Under the pieces are notes generated by a model. The model worked only from the letters and a program-made list of their open reading frames with translations. It did not search any database and was not told the DNA's origin. A stretch of 63,997 nucleotides of DNA, the filler included, from Reclinomonas americana ATCC 50394 (lineage: Eukaryota): assembly GCA_048213135.1 (NCBI GenBank). It is 12 parts of 12 records of this genome, joined end to end, with 100 filler letters (N's around TTAATTAATTAA, not from the genome) between each part and the next. Parts side by side here need not be neighbours in the genome. Positions count along the whole stretch, not along the records: positions 1 to 15,780 come from AFZH01018099.1; 11 more parts are not named here. One strand, given 5' to 3'. A program made the position numbers and the translations under genes. Positions 2,947-15,880 of the stretch are shown piece by piece (positions within the stretch are counted from its first letter, which is position 1; every line of letters starts with the position of its first letter).

Positions 2947-5900
2947 TTAGCGGCGCGTCACTGCTGTTGCCGTTGACGCCGCTGCCGTAGCGGTTGCCGC
3001 TGGCGTTGCCGCCGTCGTCGTCGTCGTCGTGGTTGTGGTTGTCGTTATCGCCGTGGCCGACGGACGCCTGCCACCTGCGGCAGTGTCAATAGCGCCACTG
3101 CTGCTGCGACGCGCACTGCGCGAGACGCCCTCGAAGATGAACTTGGCCATCAGCGGCAGATGATCCGAGGCCACACGGCGACTCGGCCACACGACAACCT
3201 CGTCTTTCTCCACCGCACGGAACGTGTCGAGAACGCCGGCCACTCGCAGACCGCAATTACGTGCAAACAGAATGTAGCTGCGCATGCGCGAGTGTGAGAA
3301 ACAGGAGCTCTTCTGGGTGGGAGCAAGGCCGGCACGCTGCCGCAACTCGATGCAGCCGGCAAACGATTCAGCGCGATGCGTCACAGCAAGTTCGTGCCCG
3401 CCCAACATGTGCTTGTATGCGCTCTCGAAATGCAAGTCGTGGCGGCTGCTGATGGCAAGCGGCGAAGTGGAGCCCGGCACTTCTGCGGCCTCACTGAACG
3501 ACACAACCACCACGTCAGCAACACACTTCTACGAGACGAATCATGTTCGGCCACTCACCGAAACACGGGATCGCTGCTTGACAGATGGCCACCCACCAGG
3601 TACCGATAGCCGGGCGAGTCTGGCAGCAGATTGAAATCGCCGGCCAGTATCAACGGCTTGTCGCTCATTTGGCACGCCTCGCGGAACTCTACAATGTGAC
3701 GAACCAAAGCCACCAGCTGCAGGGAGTGGCTTTCAGTTGCCACGGCCGACTCACAGTCAACAGGACGCAGGTGCAGAGCAACTCAACTTGTCGCAACTGA
3801 ATGGCAGGATACCGGCCGCGCTGTCCGCTAGTCAGTTGCGCGCAGCACACCATCACCGCCTGCGCTGACTGAATGTGTCGCAGCACAGCAGTCACCACCA
3901 CGTTGGTGTGCCCGGTGGAGATGTCGCGCGCCACTCGCGGGTCGTCTGTCAGCCCTGCCACACCGTCGGCGAGAGCAAACTCGCGCACATCAACGAGTTT
4001 GAAGACCTGCCTCACGCGACAGGAGTCGTCAGCCACTCAATGAAAATGTGCACTGTAAAGACGACGCAACTTGTGGATTCCACAGGAGCGAGCAGCCGAG
4101 GTTGGGCCGACCCGGCAGAAGCACCTTCCGATTGCGTCCACGTCTGCGCACATACACACCACCGGCAAGCACGCCACCGTCGACGCTGCCACGTGCTAGC
4201 TCCTCCGTCAGCTGCGCAACGTGATTGTCTTCGGCCACGTCGTGGTCCTCGTAGCCTTGCACCTCCTGCAGGCATAGAATGTCGGGGCGGCGGATGGCGA
4301 TCTGGCGACACGACGTGCTCAGCAGAAGGAGTGCAACGAGACAACGAGACGCGTGCTCCTACCTCGGTGATGCTGTTCGTCGAGTGGAACAAAGGAGAAA
4401 TAAATACTGTCAGTAGCAGTGGCGATGACAGCAACGAGAGCAGAGACGGACGGACGCACATGCCAGCACGCCGCACGTTCCAGTCGAGCACTTGTTCCGG
4501 GTTGGGCACGTGTGGATACAACTCCTGCACAGCGTCAGCAAGCCTCACATGTGCGCGCACACGGTGGAGCACAACAGACCTTGATGGCGCGCATGTCGGC
4601 CAAAATGTTCCACGACATGACCGAGAAGTACACTGCATGATGCAAGAGGCCACGGTTATGCAAATGCACTAGCAACAACAGATTCGACACAACCCCACCA
4701 GCATCCTTTGGCACATCCAGTTCATCGATAAACTGCACGAGAGTTGAGAACAGCGTGCGAGTGGGGAGTGCGTCAAGCAGCGCAACTTTTCGCAGTTCCG
4801 GCAGCGCCTTGCGTCGACAGACGCGCATGGCCGACTTGCGCGAGTCCTTGAAAACTTGCAGCACGCGCGAGCGTTGCAGCGCCGTAGACAGCGTGTCGAG
4901 TGGGTCTGTTCCAACTTGTCAGCGCCACTCCAGCACATTGCATTATGTTAAGCACACGCACCTGGATAGTTACTGAGCCACTCTTTCAGTGGATACAGCT
5001 TGAGCAGATCACGCAGCTTGATGCTGCCGTCGCTTTCTCGCAGAATCGACAGCAGTTGCTGTGCGCAGCAGTCAGATGAAAGCCTTATGCATGCATTCAT
5101 CTATCCCCCGCCCCCAACGACGTACCGCATTGGAGAGGAGGAACGACTCGTCGAACCACGACTGGACTTGCGAGCGCAGTCGACGAAGCAGCTCGTCGTG
5201 CGACCACTTGCCAGGATCGTCAATGCCCTCGCCTGCACCGCCGGCGGCACTCGCAAGGCTGCCGGCCTGTGGACTCATGATCTGCAGCACGAAGAGAAGG
5301 TCGTTCAGTCGGTGCACGAGCGAGCATCTAATTTCATCCCACTGTGTCCACTCACAACTCCACTGAACGCCGGACTCATGACGGGCGACATGAGTGGTGA
5401 CATGGATCCGTCGCGCAGCACAATCGCCTTTCCGTTTGGCGTCAGTCGGACACACACCTACGCAAACAGAGGAAGATGAGATTTGGCGAAGCGCGCCGTC
5501 GCACGACAGTCGCGACAGACCGCCGACAAGTCGCCCTTGATCACGGAGCGGATGGTGGAGGCCGTGACGGGAGTCTTTGTCATCGACTTGAAGGGCCACA
5601 TGTGCGGCAACTCCTCCACCGGGATCTCCTTCCCGCTGCTGCATTCGAGCAGTTGCGGATTCACGTGGATCCACTCGGGCGAGAACATGCGATTGAGTGC
5701 ACGGCGCACGAAATCCTGCGTGTTGGTGCGCCCAATGAACACCGCGCCACGTCCACGCTGTCGCACGCTGATGGTGACCAGTGGCGAGGCTGCAATTCAG
5801 CACCACGCACGTGAGACGATGGAGAGCACAGTACGAGTGGCGAAGTGACAGCGGATGGAAGACAGAGAGCAGAATGAGTCATGATCTGTACCTGTGGCCG

Positions 5901-6988
5901 CCGCGCGCACGTGGTCCTCGTGCCGTGCCTCGGGTTCACGTCGCAGCAAGTGACGCACGCGTGAGAGCTGGAGAAAGTCGGCGAGCGGCACCGACTTGTC
6001 GGAAAAGTTGTACTTTTCGCACAGCTCCCGCAGCACCGGAAAGTGCGTCAGACCGCGATCACTGAACCACACTCCCAGCATGAGCTCCAGGTGCTGCAAC
6101 AGCGGGCGCGCCTTCATGTACTGCGGTTGATCAGCACACAGACAGACCCGCGATCCACGTTTATCCTGCGCGCAAGGAGAGTTGTGAGACAAGTCCGCAA
6201 AGCAACACCAAGCACAGACGCAACGGCCTTTTCGAGGGCCTCCGCCACCACCTCCACAGGCGAGCGGCGTGGAAAGTAGCGCTGACACAGCGCCGAGAGT
6301 ACCGGGTGCTCGGAAACAAACAAGCGCAGCTCGACTCGCCCGTCGGGACTGTGCGCCATGGCATCGGCCACTGCCGTGCTGTTGCCGCGTCCATCCTGCA
6401 GATCGGCGAGCACTGGAGAAGGGGGGTGAGACGGCACATGGCGCAGGTGTGGACTGGCGCGCACGGGCGCAACTGTCGTCCAGGCGGGCGGTGATCTGAT
6501 CGGCCACACGACGACCGCGCACACTCGGCGACTGCTTGGTGCCGACCGGCTGCACAAACTCCACCGTGTAGAGCGGGAAGCGCTCCAGTGCCTCGCCAAT
6601 GTCGTACACAGTGACGCCCTGTGCTCACAACGCACATGAGGACGAGGGAGATAGAGGGGCGAGGGGAGGGGAGAACGCAACAGCCGCCAGTCGCGGCAGC
6701 AGCAACTGCACAGCGATATTCTCGCCCTTCTTGTTCACCAGCACTGACAAGTCGGCACCCTTGCCGGTGTCCTCAGGCAGCTGCTCGAAGAGGCGTTCGT
6801 ACACGGCACCCACATCGGCGGCCAGTTGTCGCAGAACAGCGGGCTGACACATGGGAGTGTGAGGGGGAGTGAGGGGAGAGAGAAAGATGGGGCAGTGGTG
6901 TGCGCACCGGTAGTCCAGTGCCACCGTCCAGCATGCTGCGTCGACGAGCGCTGGCGCTGTTGCCACCGCCCCCGCAACAGGCGCCCAT
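2947..6988 (-). CDS. Multi-La-motif + CCR4/Angel/PDE12-type EEP protein, paralog A, starts MGACC
   Basis: EEP motifs SWNILA, PDILCLQEVQ, LAGDFN, CIDYILF (after splicing) and ASDHLPL. La-like units include LRSQVQSWFDESFLLSN...LSTALQRSRVLQV...VCRRKALPE. The start codon at 6988 is inferred. Confidence 0.75.
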
Positions 6989-7106
6989 GGTAGCTAAGCT
7001 AAGCAGCGAGATAGGCCGAGATATCCACGGTCGGTTGATTGGCGATCTGTGGCGAACCCTTGTGTAAACGCGAACGAGGAGAGAGTCGGGAAGCTGCATC
7101 ATCGTG

Positions 7107-7385
7107 ATGGCTTGTCGCGCTGCTGAGCGCGTGTTCAACATCGTCCGCAGCATCCCGCGCACCACTTTGTCGCGAGAAGAGCTTCTCTCTGAGCTGAAGA
7201 CTCAACGCGAAGAGTTGGCGACACTCTGCGCCGAAGAGACTCGACGTGGACTGGCCGACGCGCAGAGCCGCCTGAATGCCATTCGAGAGCGAGAGCGATC
7301 GAAATCTGATGATCATGATCCCGTTGCGGCCTCCGGATCCACGCCCACTCCGTCTCAGACTGGCACCGGTGCCACGTGTGAGTGA
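7107..7385 (+). CDS. Possible small intronless coiled-coil protein
   Basis: Short ORF with helical, charged composition (REELLSELKTQREELATL), divergent from the 6988 start. No family recognised. Confidence 0.3.
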   Translation: MACRAAERVFNIVRSIPRTTLSREELLSELKTQREELATLCAEETRRGLADAQSRLNAIRERERSKSDDHDPVAASGSTPTPSQTGTGATCE

Positions 7386-7937
7386 CGAAAAGGACCCTCT
7401 GGCCCGTGGTTAGCGCCTCGACGTTTGCGCCTTCGACCGCAGGCAGCAGCATCCGCAGTATTTCTGGCAGAGCGCGCGCGGATTTCAGTCCAGGCTGCAG
7501 CGCGAAGTGTTGGTACATTGGTGCATAATGAGCGTGAATCCAGGTGGCTAGAGTTAGTAAACTAAGACGGTCCTCGTGTGAGAACAACCAATGTCGAGAG
7601 CAAAACACGGACAGAAACCAATTTCGATTTCTGCTGGTTTTCACGTGTCCGCAGTTTTCGGTGGCGATGTGCTCGATTTCCCAGCGTCCTTGGTCAGCTA
7701 AACCTGGCCGGTGTGCAGACCTTAAACTTTCCGGTCCATAATTGCACCGAGGACGTGCTCGCTTTTCATCTTCTCGCAGACAGCACTTGCAAAAGCAAAG
7801 GGAATCTACAAACATCGATATCCGTGGTTGAAAAATGGTAATAAAAGACAGCTGTCGCTGAATGAGTGTAACATACAGTTGTTACACTCCACAATTGCTT
7901 CATTCAACATGCACATGCACGCTTCCGTGCACGGCAC

Positions 7938-10929
7938 CTAACGATCAAAATCAATTACTGCATGCATGCATGCGCCGTCAGTATGCCAGCCTCACAGCAG
8001 CAGAATCGACAGCGGCACTCACCAGCAATCGGCCACATGTACTTGTCGGTTTCGTTGACGACAAAGTAGTTTGCCGAGTCGACCCACGTGACGGTACCAC
8101 CTGGCGGCGCATCGGTGAGCCCACTTCGTAGGTAAGTGCACAGAAAGACATCGGACACGCACTCTCCAACAAGCACTCGAACACAATCATGCGGTTCGCC
8201 GCGTCGGCGTATCCGATGCTGACAGAGGCGTTGCGTGCAAAGTAATCACTGATGCACACACACACGTGAGATATACACAGGAATTCAGGAGTACGAAAAG
8301 CAGTGGATAGTAACGCACCCCTGCCCATACGCCATTCGCCTGCGCATCGCCGGATTGAAGCCTTCCTGGAGAATCTTTGGAATCACATCGCCCCTGGTGC
8401 CGTGGAACGCCAACATGGGGATCAGTGGCTCTGCGTGCCGTCGCGTGAGAGATCACAACAAAGCGCAAGGCGCAGCCGGTGGCGACGCACTTCCTTGTCG
8501 GTTACGCCGCATCTCTTCCACCACCTCGCCGTACCGCTTGCGCGTCGAGGTACTCCACACGACCATGGTAATGGCGCGGATGTTCTTCGGTGTGCCGTTG
8601 GCCCAAGAGATGTCGGCGTTCCACTGGTTGCGGACGCTCATCTCGACATCGGGCAGCCTGACATCGGGTCGTTCTGCCGAGCGCCAGCCAGCCGCCTCAA
8701 TCTCCTGCGCAATGGCGTCCAGATCTGCACATTGCGTCAGGATGCAAGCGGGGGATACCGACGACCGAGGTCGACTCACCCATGCGCGTGACTTGCCTCA
8801 CTTCCTCCGTAAAGTCCAGGGTGGCCTGCAGACGCTGTGCGGTGAGAAATACATACACAATGAACGTGCAGACGACAATGTGGTTCACCTCCATGGTGTT
8901 CGGAGCCACCTGTGCCACCGCAGTGCACTTGCCGCAAATGTACTCTGGCAGACCACCAGAGGCACACTTTTGGCGAAACAGGTCAATGCCCTGCTGTCGC
9001 GATTGCTGTCATAAAGAGTGTCAGTGCAGGCCGCGCGTGACTGTGCACGACACACAAATGAGTTGTACGCACAGCACTGAGTCGCACTCGACGCGAGGCG
9101 CGCCCACCCTCCAACTCGAGCACTACACAGAGACAAAACCACACACCGGCGTCAGAGGAGTGGGAGGAGTGGGTGGACCACAGCACGCAACGATAGATAA
9201 AGTTGCTGTCGTGTTCCTCACGGCAGTCCTTGCGGAAGACGATGGACCCGTGCGTCTTGAGCCTGCACAGTTGTTCAGTAAGGAAGCAAGAGAACTGGCA
9301 AACAGAGAGCACGGCAGCAACTCACGTTTCGTAGTCGGCATCGGACTGCAGTGATGAATGCGGAACGCGGAAGTACGGTGGACCAAAGAGCACCGGTTCA
9401 TCGCTGCGCGACTTCTCACGAGCTGGTTTGCGAGCGCGAGCGTCTGACCTGCGCTCGTCGGAGCTGAAGTGGCCAGAAGCTGGTGCTGCTGCTGCCGCAG
9501 ACGGATTGATTTCGGCCGGCTACGTGGGCCTCCTTGTCGAGTGAGCATACTCACACGTCGCCGCGAAAAACACACGCACGCACCTGGTCCAAGATGCTGC
9601 GTCGCTCCGCCGGACCTCCAAAGAGGCCTCCAGAAGCAGCAGCGCCAACGGGTGCTGGGGACCACGCTGCTGCGGCGGCGGCTGTCGGCGGTCGAACCGC
9701 CTGGACGAAGACCATCAGATCAGCACCTAACAGATCGATGCAGTCACTCTTCACTCGCTGGCACACACCTGACGGTCCGCGCGGCCTAGGCTGTCGACTG
9801 GCGCATCAAAGACCCCACCAGCTACAGAGGCAGCCGAGGGGGGGCGAACCGCACCAGGGCCCGCCTGGGAGTGACAGTCAGTGAGCGCCACACAGACTGT
9901 CAATCCTTCAACCATTCACGCAAACCTGAAGGTCCAGGCGGCCTAGTCTCTCGACCGGCGAGGCAAACAAACCACCAGAAGCAGCGCCCACCCCCACTCC
10001 CGGCTGGTGACGATCGACAAGTCAGTGCCGCTGACAAAGTCTTTCCTCTCCTCTCTCTCTCTCTCCCACACGCACCCGATGGCCCACATGGCTCAGACGG
10101 TCGACCGGTGCATCAAAGAGACCGCCTGCCCCTGCTGCTGCCGGTGAATAGTATGCTATCGAAGGCGCCACACCAGCTCCACCCGAGTACTCGTACGCCT
10201 GCGCGGAGGCTGGCGGCATAACCGGGCTGTACATGGACTGTTGCTGCGCCGACTGCTGGTATCTGTTCGCAGGCTCCGGCTCATAGTACACGTGCGGACG
10301 GCGCGCAGCGTATGGCTTGGGCGGAGGAGGGCGAGAATCCGCCAGTGCTTGCACCGTCGTCCACACATCACGTGGTTCGTGCTCCCGATCGCGCGCAGCA
10401 CACACACTGATCACGCTGCTGAGATCCGGGTACCGCTGCGACGCCACTGGCGAGCGACACTCTGGTGTTTCACCGCGCGTGATTAGAAGCACACACGACG
10501 AGCACATTTGCGTGCATGCATGAGTGCGCAACGGACAGCATCCCACGCAGTGCGCGTGCACCGCGTCTGCGACCACCACTTGAAGAACTTGGTGTAGGCC
10601 AACAACAGCACACCCTGCTCCTCTCGGTCGTACTTTGCGCGCTCTTTGCAGGCCTCTCGTAGCACCTTGACAGTCTGCATCTCTTCGTGCCACAGTTGCA
10701 CGTCGTTGGCCGACTGTCGCGAGTGATCGCGCATGTGCGTCTCCACTGTATGCGCATAGTGCATGAGCACACACACGCGCGCGCATGAAAAGAGAGAGAG
10801 AGCGGCAGAGACGCAACAGATATCGCGCACTGACGCGATGACATCACCCCAGGCATCACGCGGAACCAAGGGGATCATCTCCATGGAACCTCTCACATGA
10901 TCGTCCAACCGGCTGTACCCGTCAGCCAT
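7938..10929 (-). CDS. PARP-like (probably mono-) ADP-ribosyltransferase with exon-encoded N-terminal repeats
   Basis: C-terminal exons give LAFHGTRGDVIPKILQEGF, AYGQG, YFARNASVSIGYA, RMIVFECLL and VDSANYFVV. Upstream exons link in frame to an ATG at 10929 (inferred). Confidence 0.65.
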
Positions 10930-11084
10930 TGGCTCGCGAGTGGTGGAGTGTGAGTGAGTGTTACTAGTCCCGTCAACTTGAAATCCGGCCAAACGCGACG
11001 GGATTTGCCTTTCAAGCTCGCTAGCGCTGTGCGTGACTGTCGTTTGATTGTCGGGCATATTACACTATTCATTTCCACCTGCTG

Positions 11085-14000
11085 TCACTGACTGCCATCC
11101 GTCGGCCCGTGGAACGGTGGGAATCGGAAACGAGCTGTGCGCAGCAGTTTTGTAAAATGAGAATCACCTATCATCCCAGACCCCCCCTCCTTCGCCTGTT
11201 CTCCTCCTCACCGACAAGCGGAAGGTGATCCGACGGCTGGCACTCGTTCGGCAGCGCGCCGCCGTACAGTGACAGTGCGCGTTCCGACGGCACATCCAGC
11301 ACGGCCACGGGCCGCAGCAAGCCGTGCGAGTAGAAGATGTAGTCGAGACAGTTGCGGAATCCCATGGCAAAGTTAGAGTGCACCGGCTCGCGACCCAGCA
11401 CGCTGAAATACGAGCTGCGCATGTTGAGCGGGTGGCGGAGGCGTCCTTCGCGTCCTCCCAGGCGGAACAGGCCATCCTGCAGGGCCGCACGTGCCACCTC
11501 GTCGTCAGCAGGGAGATTGCCGTCCACCATAAAGTTGTAGCACGCGCTGCCAGGCAGCGAGTTAAAGTCACCGCACAGCACAGTTGCGACACGCGTGTCC
11601 TCGCCGTACGTGGCGCGCACGAAGCGCTGCAGATCCTCAATGTACTGCGTCAGCACCTTGACTTGTCGCAGCTGGAGATGCGGATCGCGGTGCTGGCACG
11701 AAATGTGTGTCGACACCACAATCACTCGATCACCCGACTCGCGGTGACGCAGTAAGACGCCCACTGCGACTTGCGTGACGCGCGTCAAGGCGGGGTTGCG
11801 CGAGCCCTTGGCGGCCTTCAGCAGTCGATCGCCGTAGCCGCATGTATCGAACTCTTCCGGCCACACAGACTCGCGCTCAAACACCGCGTGCTTCCAGTGG
11901 ACAGTGTTGCCGATGACGGGGCCGCGAGGGCCGACCACAAAGCCGTTGGTTCCACGCTTGCGCACTGCGGCCAGTGGAGAGTGAGGGAGAATAGAAGCAT
12001 GGCGTGGACGAGCAACAGCAGGCACGTGGGCACTCGAACCATAGGCTCCACAGTACACGGGATCGGAGCCGGCCGAGGTGCCGAGCAGCATCTGATGCAG
12101 CTGCAGCATGTGATTGTCCTCTTGCGGGTGGGTGTGGTTGACGGGCGCTTGCACCTCCTGCATGCACAGAATGTCGGGGCTGTAGAACATGATCTCGCGC
12201 ACACTGCAGGGAGGTAGAGTATATTGGATGAATATATGTGCGGTGCGGCGAGAGGATGCGCATGCAACGCAACAGACTCCACGAGCGATTCCTCCAGCTC
12301 AGACACTCAAAGCTGCTCAGGTACCCGAAGTGCTCCTGGCAGGCGAAAACAAAAGCAATCAGTTAATGAACACTGGTGCAGTGAGTGGCTTAGCAAGATA
12401 CGCATTCCACGCACAGGGTTGCTGGTCAGATGACTCTCAACTGCGCGGATATCACACGATGAGTGCCTGCGCCAACAACAGAAAACTGCGCAGCACCATT
12501 GCTGCAACGAAACTGAGATGTTGCGCCAAGATGTTGTACGTGGCCACCGAAAACGACGGACCTGCGTGCGCACGCGCTTCCGAGTGAGCTTCGAGTTGTG
12601 CGTAGTGACAAATGCATGCGTACTCACCCAACGGTGCGCTGCGCGGCTTCGGGCAGATGCTGAGCATGTTCTCCTCTGCACCAGCAATGCGCACCTGACG
12701 GAACTCCGGAGGTGGCGTGTCGCGGCGAACCCGTGGCACACTGCTGCTCTCTCCGATCACAGTCAGTCGCCGAGAACCGCGCAGAGCACGACAGATGAAT
12801 GCCACCGGATCTGCAAAGCAGCACCAAGTTTGAGCCTTCCATCACTCACTTCGCTTGCGAAAGCGCGCGTCCGGTGCCTTACCTTGCTCCCGCTGCAGCC
12901 ACTCGCGGAGCACACGGATGCCCAGCAGGTCTTCCACGGCCACGCTCCAGTCCTCCGAGTCCAGCAGCAGCGAAGCCAGGTAACGGTCGTGCAAGAGGTA
13001 GCGGTCTGTCTCGAGGAAACATGAGAAGAATCCTGGAGCGACGAAGAAAAGGCAAGCAGGCGTACCGCTCATGTACAACTCGATCTGTCGGCGCACACGA
13101 TGTGCAGCTTCTTCGGGAGACCAACGAGCCACCTCGAGTGGTGGGCTCGACAGTGCCTGCGAGGGATGCTGTGCGTGCGCATTGTATTTAGCGATGCGAA
13201 TGCAACAAAAAAATCGCAGTGTGCCTGTGGTGAGCAAGCAAGTGACGAAACGGCAATGGCATCGCGGAATGCATCATGCAGCTCATCGTCGGCTGCCCCG
13301 TGCGGCACAGGCGACCTCTCGGCCAGTTGGAGTCTGTGAAACCCTCGTCCGCGTAAGGCGTGGTGAAGGGGGTGCAAGAGGAAGAAGGGAGAGAAAAACG
13401 CAACGGTGTGATCCACTCATCGTTGGCGGACAGGATCACTGGTGGCTGGCACCCAGGTACGTCGTCAAAGCCCTCCACAATGGCGGCAACAATGTCGGAT
13501 GCTGTGATGGGCTCCGTCGCGGAGAACGAGGTGAACTCGTCCAGGCTGATCAGGCTGTCGATCGGCAGTTCGCGCTCCGGACTGTCCTCCATGATCTCCA
13601 GGAGATCCGGCTGCGGGCAAGAGTGTGTGAGTGCATGCAGCTGATAAGTGTCGTCCTTCTCTCGCCGCTGCACGCAACATATCGACTGAGGCCACGCTTG
13701 GCAAACAAGTCGTGCAGCGTCCGGCGAATGTACGTGCCGCGCGGGCACTTGCCGATGAGCAACTCTGACGATGGTGTCGGCTGAACCACTTGCACGAAGC
13801 GCGAGTCTGCGATGGGTCGTTGTGTGAACGCAGTGTGACAGCGAAAGAAATGCAGATCACGAAAAGCACTCACGTCCCACAGCGGAAATGATGAACGGCT
13901 CACGCTCCGATGCAGGGATGTAGCGCAGCGTCTGCATGATGCTCGACGTGTGGAGCATGTCGGAGAGGAGCGCCAGATTCCCTCCGTGTGATTCGCACAG

Positions 14001-14989
14001 CGCACGCAAGCGCGGGTCACGGTCCTGCTGCTGCGCGGAGAAACACGCAGCCAGTTGCATCTCCACAACACGCGCCGTCGGCACGCACAGCACCGTCGAT
14101 CCATCGGCACTCATGCGCACGCGGCCGCTCGTGTGGTTCTGCTGCCGCAAGCCAATGGCCTCCAGCACGATCTCGGCGGAGGAGAACGCGCGGCCACTGG
14201 GTGCCATCGTCGCCACACGCGTGCGACACACAATCTCCACCAGTGGCAGCTGCCGCAGGAGCACCTCGGCCGACAACGCCACTCCGTCCGCTCCCTTCTT
14301 GAACTCCTCTCGCAGCGGCACCACCGCGGCATCCACTTCGTCATCGCCTCGCTGCGCAGACGCCTCGGCGGCGGCAAACGCTGGACAAACCATCAATCGT
14401 CAGCACACTGGCATTGCAAACAGACTTCAAACAGCGTGCCTTCGTCGATCAACAAGACAATCTCGTGCGCCACTGATCGCCGACGAATGCACCGTTCCGC
14501 CGGGTAGTAGCCAATGGAGGCCGGCGGAAACGAGTCCACCGCCTCACAGATCAGTTCCTCGGTGATGTCCTTTGGATTTTTCCGACCATTGACATGAGCA
14601 CTCACTCAATCTCATCAGCTGAATGACATGCCACTCACCGACCGCAACCACTGCATCTCGCGGTGAATATCAATCGGCGCACCTGCTGCTGTCAGCACAC
14701 GGCGCAACTCTGCGCGATCCGAGCCCACTTCCACACTCTCTGCGCGACTCAGAAACACCGTCGAGTTGCGCGCCAACATCACCGAAGGCGACGCTGGTGC
14801 AGCGGCCGCAGAGGCAGCTGCCAGTGACACTGTCGTGGGCACATGTGCGTGTGTGTGTGCTGCTGCTGATGGTGGTGGTGCGGAGGAGGCGGAGGCGGCC
14901 TCAAAGGGCGCGGCAATACGACGCGCGAGCTCTCGCAGGCGACTTGAACGCTCGTCAGCGTCGCCAGTGGAAAAGTAGGAACTCGCCAT
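11085..14989 (-). CDS. Multi-La-motif + CCR4/Angel/PDE12-type EEP protein, paralog B
   Basis: EEP motifs ATYNILAQ, PDILCMQEVQ, VSTHI, LCGDFNS, CLDYIFY and PSDHLPL. La motif RVRRQIELYMS-DRYLLHDRYLASLL...ICRALRGSRRLTV...RVRRDTPPPE. Confidence 0.8.
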
Positions 14990-15780: not shown

Positions 15781-15880
15781 NNNNNNNNNNNNNNNNNNNN
15801 NNNNNNNNNNNNNNNNNNNNNNNNTTAATTAATTAANNNNNNNNNNNNNNNNNNNNNNNNNNNNNNNNNNNNNNNNNNNN
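15781..15880. other. Artificial contig linker (N run + TTAATTAATTAA). The same linker occurs at 19544, 24648, 29464, 34026, 36523, 38907, 41230, 45526, 48168 and 62311.
   Basis: 100-nt blocks of N with a six-frame stop oligo in the middle. Confidence 0.98.

Follow-up and report, generated by a model that had tools for sequence, protein, structure and literature searches.

What do two related genes on one short contig of Reclinomonas americana ATCC 50394 encode, when their predicted products carry repeated units resembling the RNA-binding La motif ahead of a nuclease domain of the exonuclease-endonuclease-phosphatase (EEP) type? The question was raised by a stretch of 63,997 nucleotides from assembly GCA_048213135.1 (the window), the first 15,780 of which come from contig AFZH01018099.1 and carry both genes, here called paralogs A and B. 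La motifs are single modules binding RNA 3' ends, and members of the CCR4 clade, to which the nuclease domain is related, vary widely in substrate. An earlier note, made from the DNA alone, had described both genes, and the peptides it quoted were recovered on the minus strand where it had placed them. The present analysis established that La-like units and an EEP nuclease are fused in both genes, that the genes are paralogs, and that they are related to a family with the same architecture in haptophyte algae. The architecture is an uncharacterised variant of known parts and not a new kind of system.

The minus-strand frames switch every few hundred bases at GT...AG boundaries, indicating a eukaryotic sequence with many short introns. 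Gene models were obtained with a splice-aware procedure combining codon log-odds (from 25 high-GC3 open reading frames (ORFs), 3919 codons) and splice-site weights, and were then hand-curated against the other paralog and relatives. Homology was used for the curation because dynamic-programming runs disagreed at several junctions. An iterated gene model based on splice position weight matrices was discarded, as it over-predicted introns and gave 34 exons per gene. The curated models were as follows.

7316-2947, minus strand: paralog A, curated model with 15 exons, about 1027 amino acids (aa)
14989-11085, minus strand: paralog B, curated model with 13 exons, 927 aa

In paralog A, uncertainty attaches to the N-terminal exon or exons, to the junctions of exons 6/7 and 10/11 and to the C-terminal tail; in paralog B, it attaches to the exon 5/6 junction (13460-13169), to exon 9 and likewise to the C-terminal tail. 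Removal of single introns restored motifs of the family exactly, namely ...CIDYILF (intron 3346-3278) and ...LLWNPQVFKL (4070-4007) in A, and LSWRNRSWSLVREIMFYSPDIL (12273-12204) and SDHLPLVARFRF (11211-11135) in B. Eleven spacers, each consisting of N44-TTAATTAATTAA-N44 (a six-frame stop linker), join short draft contigs in the window, so gene neighbourhood across a spacer is meaningless. The contig at 1-15780 contains both genes entire, and the linkage of A and B is therefore real.

The predicted proteins were divided into La-like units, numbered 0 to 3 from the N terminus, and the EEP domain. Each line names the evidence for the unit or domain (HMM stands for hidden Markov model).

6103-6507, minus strand: A unit 0, a candidate additional La-like unit preceding the other three (HMM and hhalign)
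5722-6102, minus strand: A unit 1 (LLQHLELMLGVWFSDRGL...), La-motif-like (HMM and hhalign)
5300-5721, minus strand: A unit 2 (FVRRALNRMFSPEWI...), weakly La-like (hhalign)
4796-5206, minus strand: A unit 3 (LRSQVQSWFDESFL...RRKALPE), the strongest of the La-motif-like units of A, in three exons (HMM and hhalign)
3133-4630, minus strand: A EEP nuclease domain, with several short introns inside (Pfam pieces and family HMM)
14079-14473, minus strand: B unit 0, a candidate additional La-like unit (alignment with the haptophyte first unit, and hhalign)
13742-14078, minus strand: B unit 1 (VEMQLAACFSAQQQDRDPRLRAL...), La-motif-like (hhalign and AlphaFold model)
13461-13741, minus strand: B unit 2 (YIRRTLHDLFAKRGL...), weakly La-like (hhalign)
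12704-13123, minus strand: B unit 3 (VRRQIELYMSDRYLLHDRYL...RRDTPPPE), the best La-motif-like unit, in three exons (HMM, hhalign and BLASTP)
11121-12556, minus strand: B EEP nuclease domain (Pfam, PDB search and residue table)
4535-4918, minus strand: A bridging open frame, which includes RRKALPE, closing unit 3, and FSVMSWNILAD, the first EEP motif
12452-12841, minus strand: B bridging open frame, which includes RRDTPPPE, closing unit 3, and FSVATYNILAQ, the first EEP motif

In both paralogs one stop-free ORF bridges the end of unit 3 and the start of the EEP domain, indicating that the La-like part and the nuclease form one gene. The earlier note had named separate La and EEP genes as an outcome that would overturn its description, and the bridging frames argue against such a separation. 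An HMM of the family also spanned the La-EEP junction in A (4828-4589, E=2.8e-4) and in B (12748-12506, E=6.1e-6). The front of unit 3 connects to the bridging ORFs via predicted introns only. Along both arrays, what comes after a unit is either the next La-like unit or the EEP domain. The paralogy proposed in the earlier note was confirmed by a collinear alignment of the spliced products (residues 112-966 of A and 93-916 of B), with 26.8% identity over 919 columns and E=1.6e-54.

The nuclease domain was identified with Pfam Exo_endo_phos (PF03372), which matched the B ORF 11171-12298 with E=4.9e-10 (40 bits against a cut-off of 24.5). The same profile gave sub-threshold pieces of 23.2 and 16.8 bits in A because introns split the domain there, and an EEP family HMM built here recognised two stretches of A with 54.8 and 46.1 bits. 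When the C-terminal 250 aa of B were ranked against the sequences of solved structures, PDE12 was the best match (E=2e-18), followed by yeast Ccr4 (E=1.3e-14), CNOT6/CNOT6L (E=3e-8 to 1e-7), Nocturnin (E=1.6e-6) and Angel2 (E=6e-6). The description of the domain as CCR4/Angel-type in the earlier note thus held for Ccr4, but Angel2 was far weaker. As PDE12 and Ccr4 are far closer than Angel2, the domain is more probably a poly(A)-type exonuclease than a cyclic phosphatase.

The window genes share with CCR4/CNOT6/CNOT6L and PDE12 the catalytic fold and the residue set Asn, Glu, His, Asp, Asn, Asp and Asp-His. All eight active-site residues conserved in the family were found in B and seven of the eight in A, where Gln replaces the family His of the TTHL motif (H584 in the haptophyte protein P0001; His in 11 of the 12 rows of alignment A1). 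Paralog B looks fully catalytic, and paralog A may be a weaker or regulatory form, because of the His-to-Gln replacement and its much longer branch in the EEP tree described below. Ccr4 has an N-terminal leucine-rich repeat (LRR) region docking on Caf1, whereas the window genes carry the La-like array instead. No LRR family was among the Pfam matches of 18 ORF pieces of the window, and docking to CCR4-NOT via Caf1 is thus not expected. A metagenome scan with the EEP domain of B gave 178 pattern matches, of which none was confirmed.

The sole longer database relative of the B EEP ORF was P0001 of Prymnesium parvum, a protein with Pfam La (two stretches, E=2e-21) and EEP. A search with P0001 returned 20 proteins, and La and EEP were both present in 14 of them, belonging to Prymnesium, Haptolina, Emiliania, the Chrysochromulina cluster and metagenome or Logan assemblies. 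The Pfam rescan of seven relatives detected La and EEP in all seven, with two La stretches in six. Family members were the best database matches (E=5e-27 and 1e-24), with plant CCR4 homologs at 5e-12, and a near-length search with the B EEP domain likewise ranked family members (E=1e-24 and 1e-12) first and the plant CCR4 homologs (5e-12) after them. The clearest example of the architecture, which we denote La(xN)-EEP, is P0022, a protein of 629 aa from a Logan assembly, in which three canonical tandem La motifs (52.2, 40.4 and 48.0 bits with the unit HMM; 120 bits with Pfam La) are directly followed by EEP. These 14 proteins and P0022 contradicted the proposal of the earlier note that the system was lineage-specific.

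The window genes share the order of parts with the haptophyte members, such as P0001 (Prymnesium parvum), P0002 (Haptolina ericina), P0014 (Emiliania huxleyi) and P0029 (Chrysochromulina tobinii). The haptophyte members are labelled 'HTH La-type RNA-binding domain-containing protein' in UniProt and 'mRNA deadenylase ... Ccr4' by JGI. The likeness extends over the junction from linker to EEP (by the family HMM) and, for B against P0022, from unit 3 to the C terminus. The La motifs of these proteins pass Pfam, whereas the units of the window fail. The EEP phylogeny suggested in the earlier note was constructed from 19 rows with plant and insect CCR4-type outgroups. Paralogs A and B and P0022 grouped with 13 rows of the haptophyte clade (P0001-P0008, P0010-P0012, P0014 and P0015) apart from the outgroups, with a support of 96/95. 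The three fell outside the haptophyte core (97/97) on long branches, 3.65 for A (the longest) and 1.66 for B, and the genome represented here has two diverged copies. A and B belong, as distant members, to a La(xN)-EEP family that is seen elsewhere in prymnesiophyte haptophytes.

The La-likeness of the N-terminal units was evaluated with an HMM built from haptophyte La proteins, which were verified by Pfam and cut into the units H0-H2, with 1000 shuffled sequences as decoys. Unit 3 of B scored 23.0 bits and that of A 17.5 bits, against 6.6 bits for the best of the 1000 decoys. With the unit-3 sequences included in the profile, A unit 1 reached 16.2 bits (decoy maximum of 5.9 in 1000) and A unit 0 reached 10.2 bits, a score attained by none of the 1000 decoys, and B unit 1 gave 4.2 bits, which two decoys reached. 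A profile including the P0022 motifs left this picture unchanged, with 25.3 bits for B unit 3 (0/1000 decoys). The paired A and B units were also used as hhalign queries against the haptophyte unit profile, with 40 column shuffles as the control. The comparison returned 96.4% for unit 3 (P=1.1e-9, 86 aligned columns), 87.0% for unit 1 (P=4.1e-6, 63 columns), 26.6% for unit 2 (P=6.9e-4, 43 columns) and 8.4% for unit 0 (P=0.004, 49 columns), and the observed score was reached by none of the 40 shuffles for each of these units. Against the three La motifs of P0022 alone, units 3, 1 and 2 gave 90.1%, 63.4% and 0.9%, respectively. BLASTP of spliced B against P0022 aligned the region from unit 3 through EEP onto the third La motif and EEP (E=1.2e-28), and unit 3 onto the second La motif (E=3.8e-4). 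The unspliced B unit 3, with the intron read through, gave no significant match to P0022 (E=0.16). In alignment A3, B unit 0 and the first haptophyte unit were collinear.

The array of at least three La-like units that the earlier note placed before each nuclease accordingly needs a graded description: La-likeness is well supported for units 3 and 1 and weakly supported for unit 2, with unit 0 as a possible addition. Its proposed profile check was likewise positive in part, through Exo_endo_phos on B and the hhalign La matches of units 3 and 1, but Pfam La gave none. A further candidate, 'unit -1' upstream of unit 0, was rejected since it had no hhalign support, its score being reached by 16 of the 40 shuffles. 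The phmmer search of B exon 3 (168 aa) against 1.84 billion representatives gave one match, the 2003-aa DUF7127 repeat protein P0021, which was judged unrelated. No usable match was found in the ESM Atlas with A exon 6 or B exon 3.

The La motifs of La and LARP1/4/6/7 resemble units 3 and 1 at the profile level, and La motifs lead the structural matches to a model of B unit 1. La and the LARPs have one La motif followed by an RNA recognition motif (RRM), whereas the window genes have tandem units fused to a nuclease, and at E<=1 none of the 18 ORF pieces had a Pfam match to an RRM family. The structural matches were obtained with the second of two AlphaFold models of B exon 3 (units 0 and 1), which was based on a 13-row alignment including two paralog rows and ten haptophyte segments. 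Its mean pLDDT was 61.6, with 70-85 over unit 1 and below 60 at unit 0. In the exhaustive structural alignment of B unit 1 (exon 3 residues 83-168) with 48,161 chains, La motifs took ranks 1-8 (LARP7 twice, La twice, LARP4, LARP1, Slr1 and Dictyostelium La) with Z of 4.9-5.8 over 61-69 residues, and LARP6 and LARP4A followed at ranks 10 and 21.

Taken together, these features are best explained by a cis-acting RNA-binding and 3'-trimming enzyme, a reading to which we assign a probability of roughly 0.55. Each gene would produce one long protein with an N-terminal array of three to five degenerate La-type winged-helix units, followed in the same reading frame by an Mg-dependent EEP 3'-exonuclease of the CCR4/PDE12 clade. 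The La-like array would hold an RNA or a ribonucleoprotein in cis, and the EEP domain would remove nucleotides from the 3' end, most plausibly A-tails. Such a protein could act as a self-targeting deadenylase or 3'-trimming enzyme without an adaptor of the CCR4-NOT type. That the units bind RNA, which substrate is used and in which direction it is trimmed are inferences from the nature of the parts.

A number of observations weigh against this reading. The models of both genes derive from our own splice prediction and homology, and the members of the La(xN)-EEP family are uncharacterised proteins. At E<=1, Pfam La (PF05383) matched none of the 18 raw ORF pieces. These pieces were unspliced, so that unit 1 (exon 5 of A, exon 3 of B) and unit 2 (A exon 6) were contiguous, while unit 3, being split by introns, was read with the intron included. 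The profile also matched none of the three window rows of alignment A3, against all ten haptophyte rows. By HMM, unit 2 was indistinguishable from the decoys with both profiles. The AlphaFold model of B exon 3 from a single sequence was unusable (pLDDT 38.7), and Foldseek with the second model found no match at E<=0.001. The structure check that the earlier note called for put La motifs in the top eight positions for B unit 1, but with modest Z values and a model dependent on a La-dominated alignment, so the model is consistent with a La fold and is not independent proof of it.

The residues of the RNA pocket point in the same direction. We take the 3'-end pocket of human La to consist of Q20, Y23, Y24, D33, F35 and F55, of which D33, F35 and F55 agree with the numbering of the structure chain. 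B unit 3 keeps three of the six (Q, Y24 and D33) with F35 replaced by Tyr, A unit 3 keeps only Q and has W at position 24, and the remaining units keep at most two of the six. The pocket residues of La and LARPs are thus mostly not kept in the window units, and canonical 3'-end binding is doubtful for most of them. The binding and trimming of RNA 3' ends proposed in the earlier note is accordingly favoured by parts that point to RNA binding and 3' trimming, but we infer the former from units whose La pocket is mostly replaced.

These losses could mean that the units are La-motif relics no longer binding RNA 3' ends, which would serve as protein-docking or scaffold modules in the manner of the LRR of Ccr4, with an EEP deadenylase recruited via partners. 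Besides the replaced pockets and the failure of Pfam La on the window units, the N-terminal exon of B, for which the search of the 1.84 billion representatives brought up no relative apart from one unrelated repeat protein, speaks of fast and relaxed evolution. However, a La-like pattern kept over five units in paralogs of 27% identity suggests selection on the fold, Gln, Tyr and Asp persist at pocket positions of B unit 3, and the pocket of the second haptophyte La motif is nearly invariant (Q212, Y216, D225, F227 and F247). We consider the relic explanation credible, though unlikely. The other point at which the trimming enzyme may be misread is its chemistry, as the EEP domain might not be a deadenylase and might instead cleave 2',5'-oligoadenylate as PDE12, act as a 2',3'-cyclic phosphatase as Angel, or be a nucleotide phosphatase of the Nocturnin type. 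The best solved relative is indeed PDE12, which carries the depositor name 2',5'-phosphodiesterase 12, and the substrate range within the CCR4 clade is wide. On the other hand, yeast Ccr4 comes next at E=1.3e-14 with Angel2 and Nocturnin far weaker, and the fusion to modules of an RNA-binding type argues for an RNA substrate; a different chemistry thus seems improbable.

It is also conceivable that the whole arrangement is an artefact of the gene models, with the La-like and EEP regions belonging to separate genes or with one or both genes decaying as pseudogenes in a draft assembly of poor quality. The window strings together short draft contigs, each model needs 12 to 14 introns of which several are uncertain, and the longest branch (3.65) belongs to A, in which one conserved His is missing. 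Nevertheless, in A as in B a stop-free ORF leads from unit 3 into the EEP domain, curated introns yield exact family motifs such as LDYI in A and SDHLPLVARFRF in B, and the order of parts is identical in 14 database proteins and P0022, which leaves an artefact very improbable. A bolder extension of the trimming-enzyme reading can be imagined, in which La(xN)-EEP proteins would constitute a separate adaptor-free class of 3'-trimming enzymes in haptophyte-related algae. The La array would read the 3' tail and hand it to the built-in deadenylase, and in the present genome the work would be split between a catalytic B and A, with its His-to-Gln replacement, as the regulator or partner. This extension is speculative and, in our estimation, rather doubtful; if true, it would provide a natural 'Rosetta stone' linking La-motif proteins functionally to deadenylation.

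The earlier note had found the architecture unfamiliar among characterised proteins, and this impression was corroborated, as searches of the literature brought up no publication or characterised protein with a La and EEP architecture. A LARP survey names La+DUF3223 as the atypical architecture, and the word 'nuclease' does not occur in its main text (PMC7928011). Most LARP La motifs are described as binding single-stranded poly(U/A) via a conserved pocket (PMC12288881). The La motifs of LARP1 and LARP4 are described as engaging poly(A), with LARP4 shielding mRNAs from deadenylation (PMC11259064, PMC11565960). A La-type array fused to a CCR4/PDE12-type 3' exonuclease would reverse this protective logic of LARP4, and the La(xN)-EEP architecture offers a testable natural experiment on how the recognition of 3' ends is coupled to their removal. 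The window units, invisible to Pfam yet recoverable via intermediate relatives, illustrate how far La modules can drift, and they are a caution for censuses of LARP domains in protists.

Several features of the surroundings and of the gene models were observed besides. The 'neighbouring' position that the earlier note gave the paralogs was correct in that they lie on the same contig, but they are not adjacent, being separated by a gap of about 3.8 kb, in which another minus-strand gene carries an exon resembling PARP.

7996-8430, possibly up to 10929, minus strand: PARP-like gene fragment between the paralogs (gene model and Pfam)

The Pfam PARP match (E=0.0027) fell on a 36-aa exon (...AFHGTRGDV...) and was below the curated cut-off. 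The rest of the PARP-like gene model is uncertain, and the gene is separate from the La-EEP genes. If read without splicing, the predicted C-terminal tail of A (about 2960-3100, minus strand) would be Ala/Thr-rich and finish with 11 Thr in a row, and a candidate alternative spliced tail would be Asp/Asn/Gly-rich. The earlier note had also suggested a possible heterodimer and a possible action on Pol III RNAs such as U6; across the window, searches for Rfam families and tRNAs found none. The base composition of the window is about 60% G+C, and its spacers lie at the following positions.

15781-15880: spacer following the contig of paralogs A and B
19544, 24648, 29464, 34026, 36523, 38907, 41230, 45526, 48168 and 62311: the ten other spacers

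On the plus strand, the ORF 1201-1989 had a sub-threshold match to MFS_1 (E=4.8e-7, 29.5 bits against a cut-off of 33.4). The 23 curated introns were 38-179 bases in length, 22 of them ending in CAG and five starting with GTTGCG. The GTTGCG donor, as in the introns 6681-6619, 4070-4007 and 3346-3278 of A and 13678-13611 and 12273-12204 of B, represents an unusual preference that may aid gene finding in this genome.

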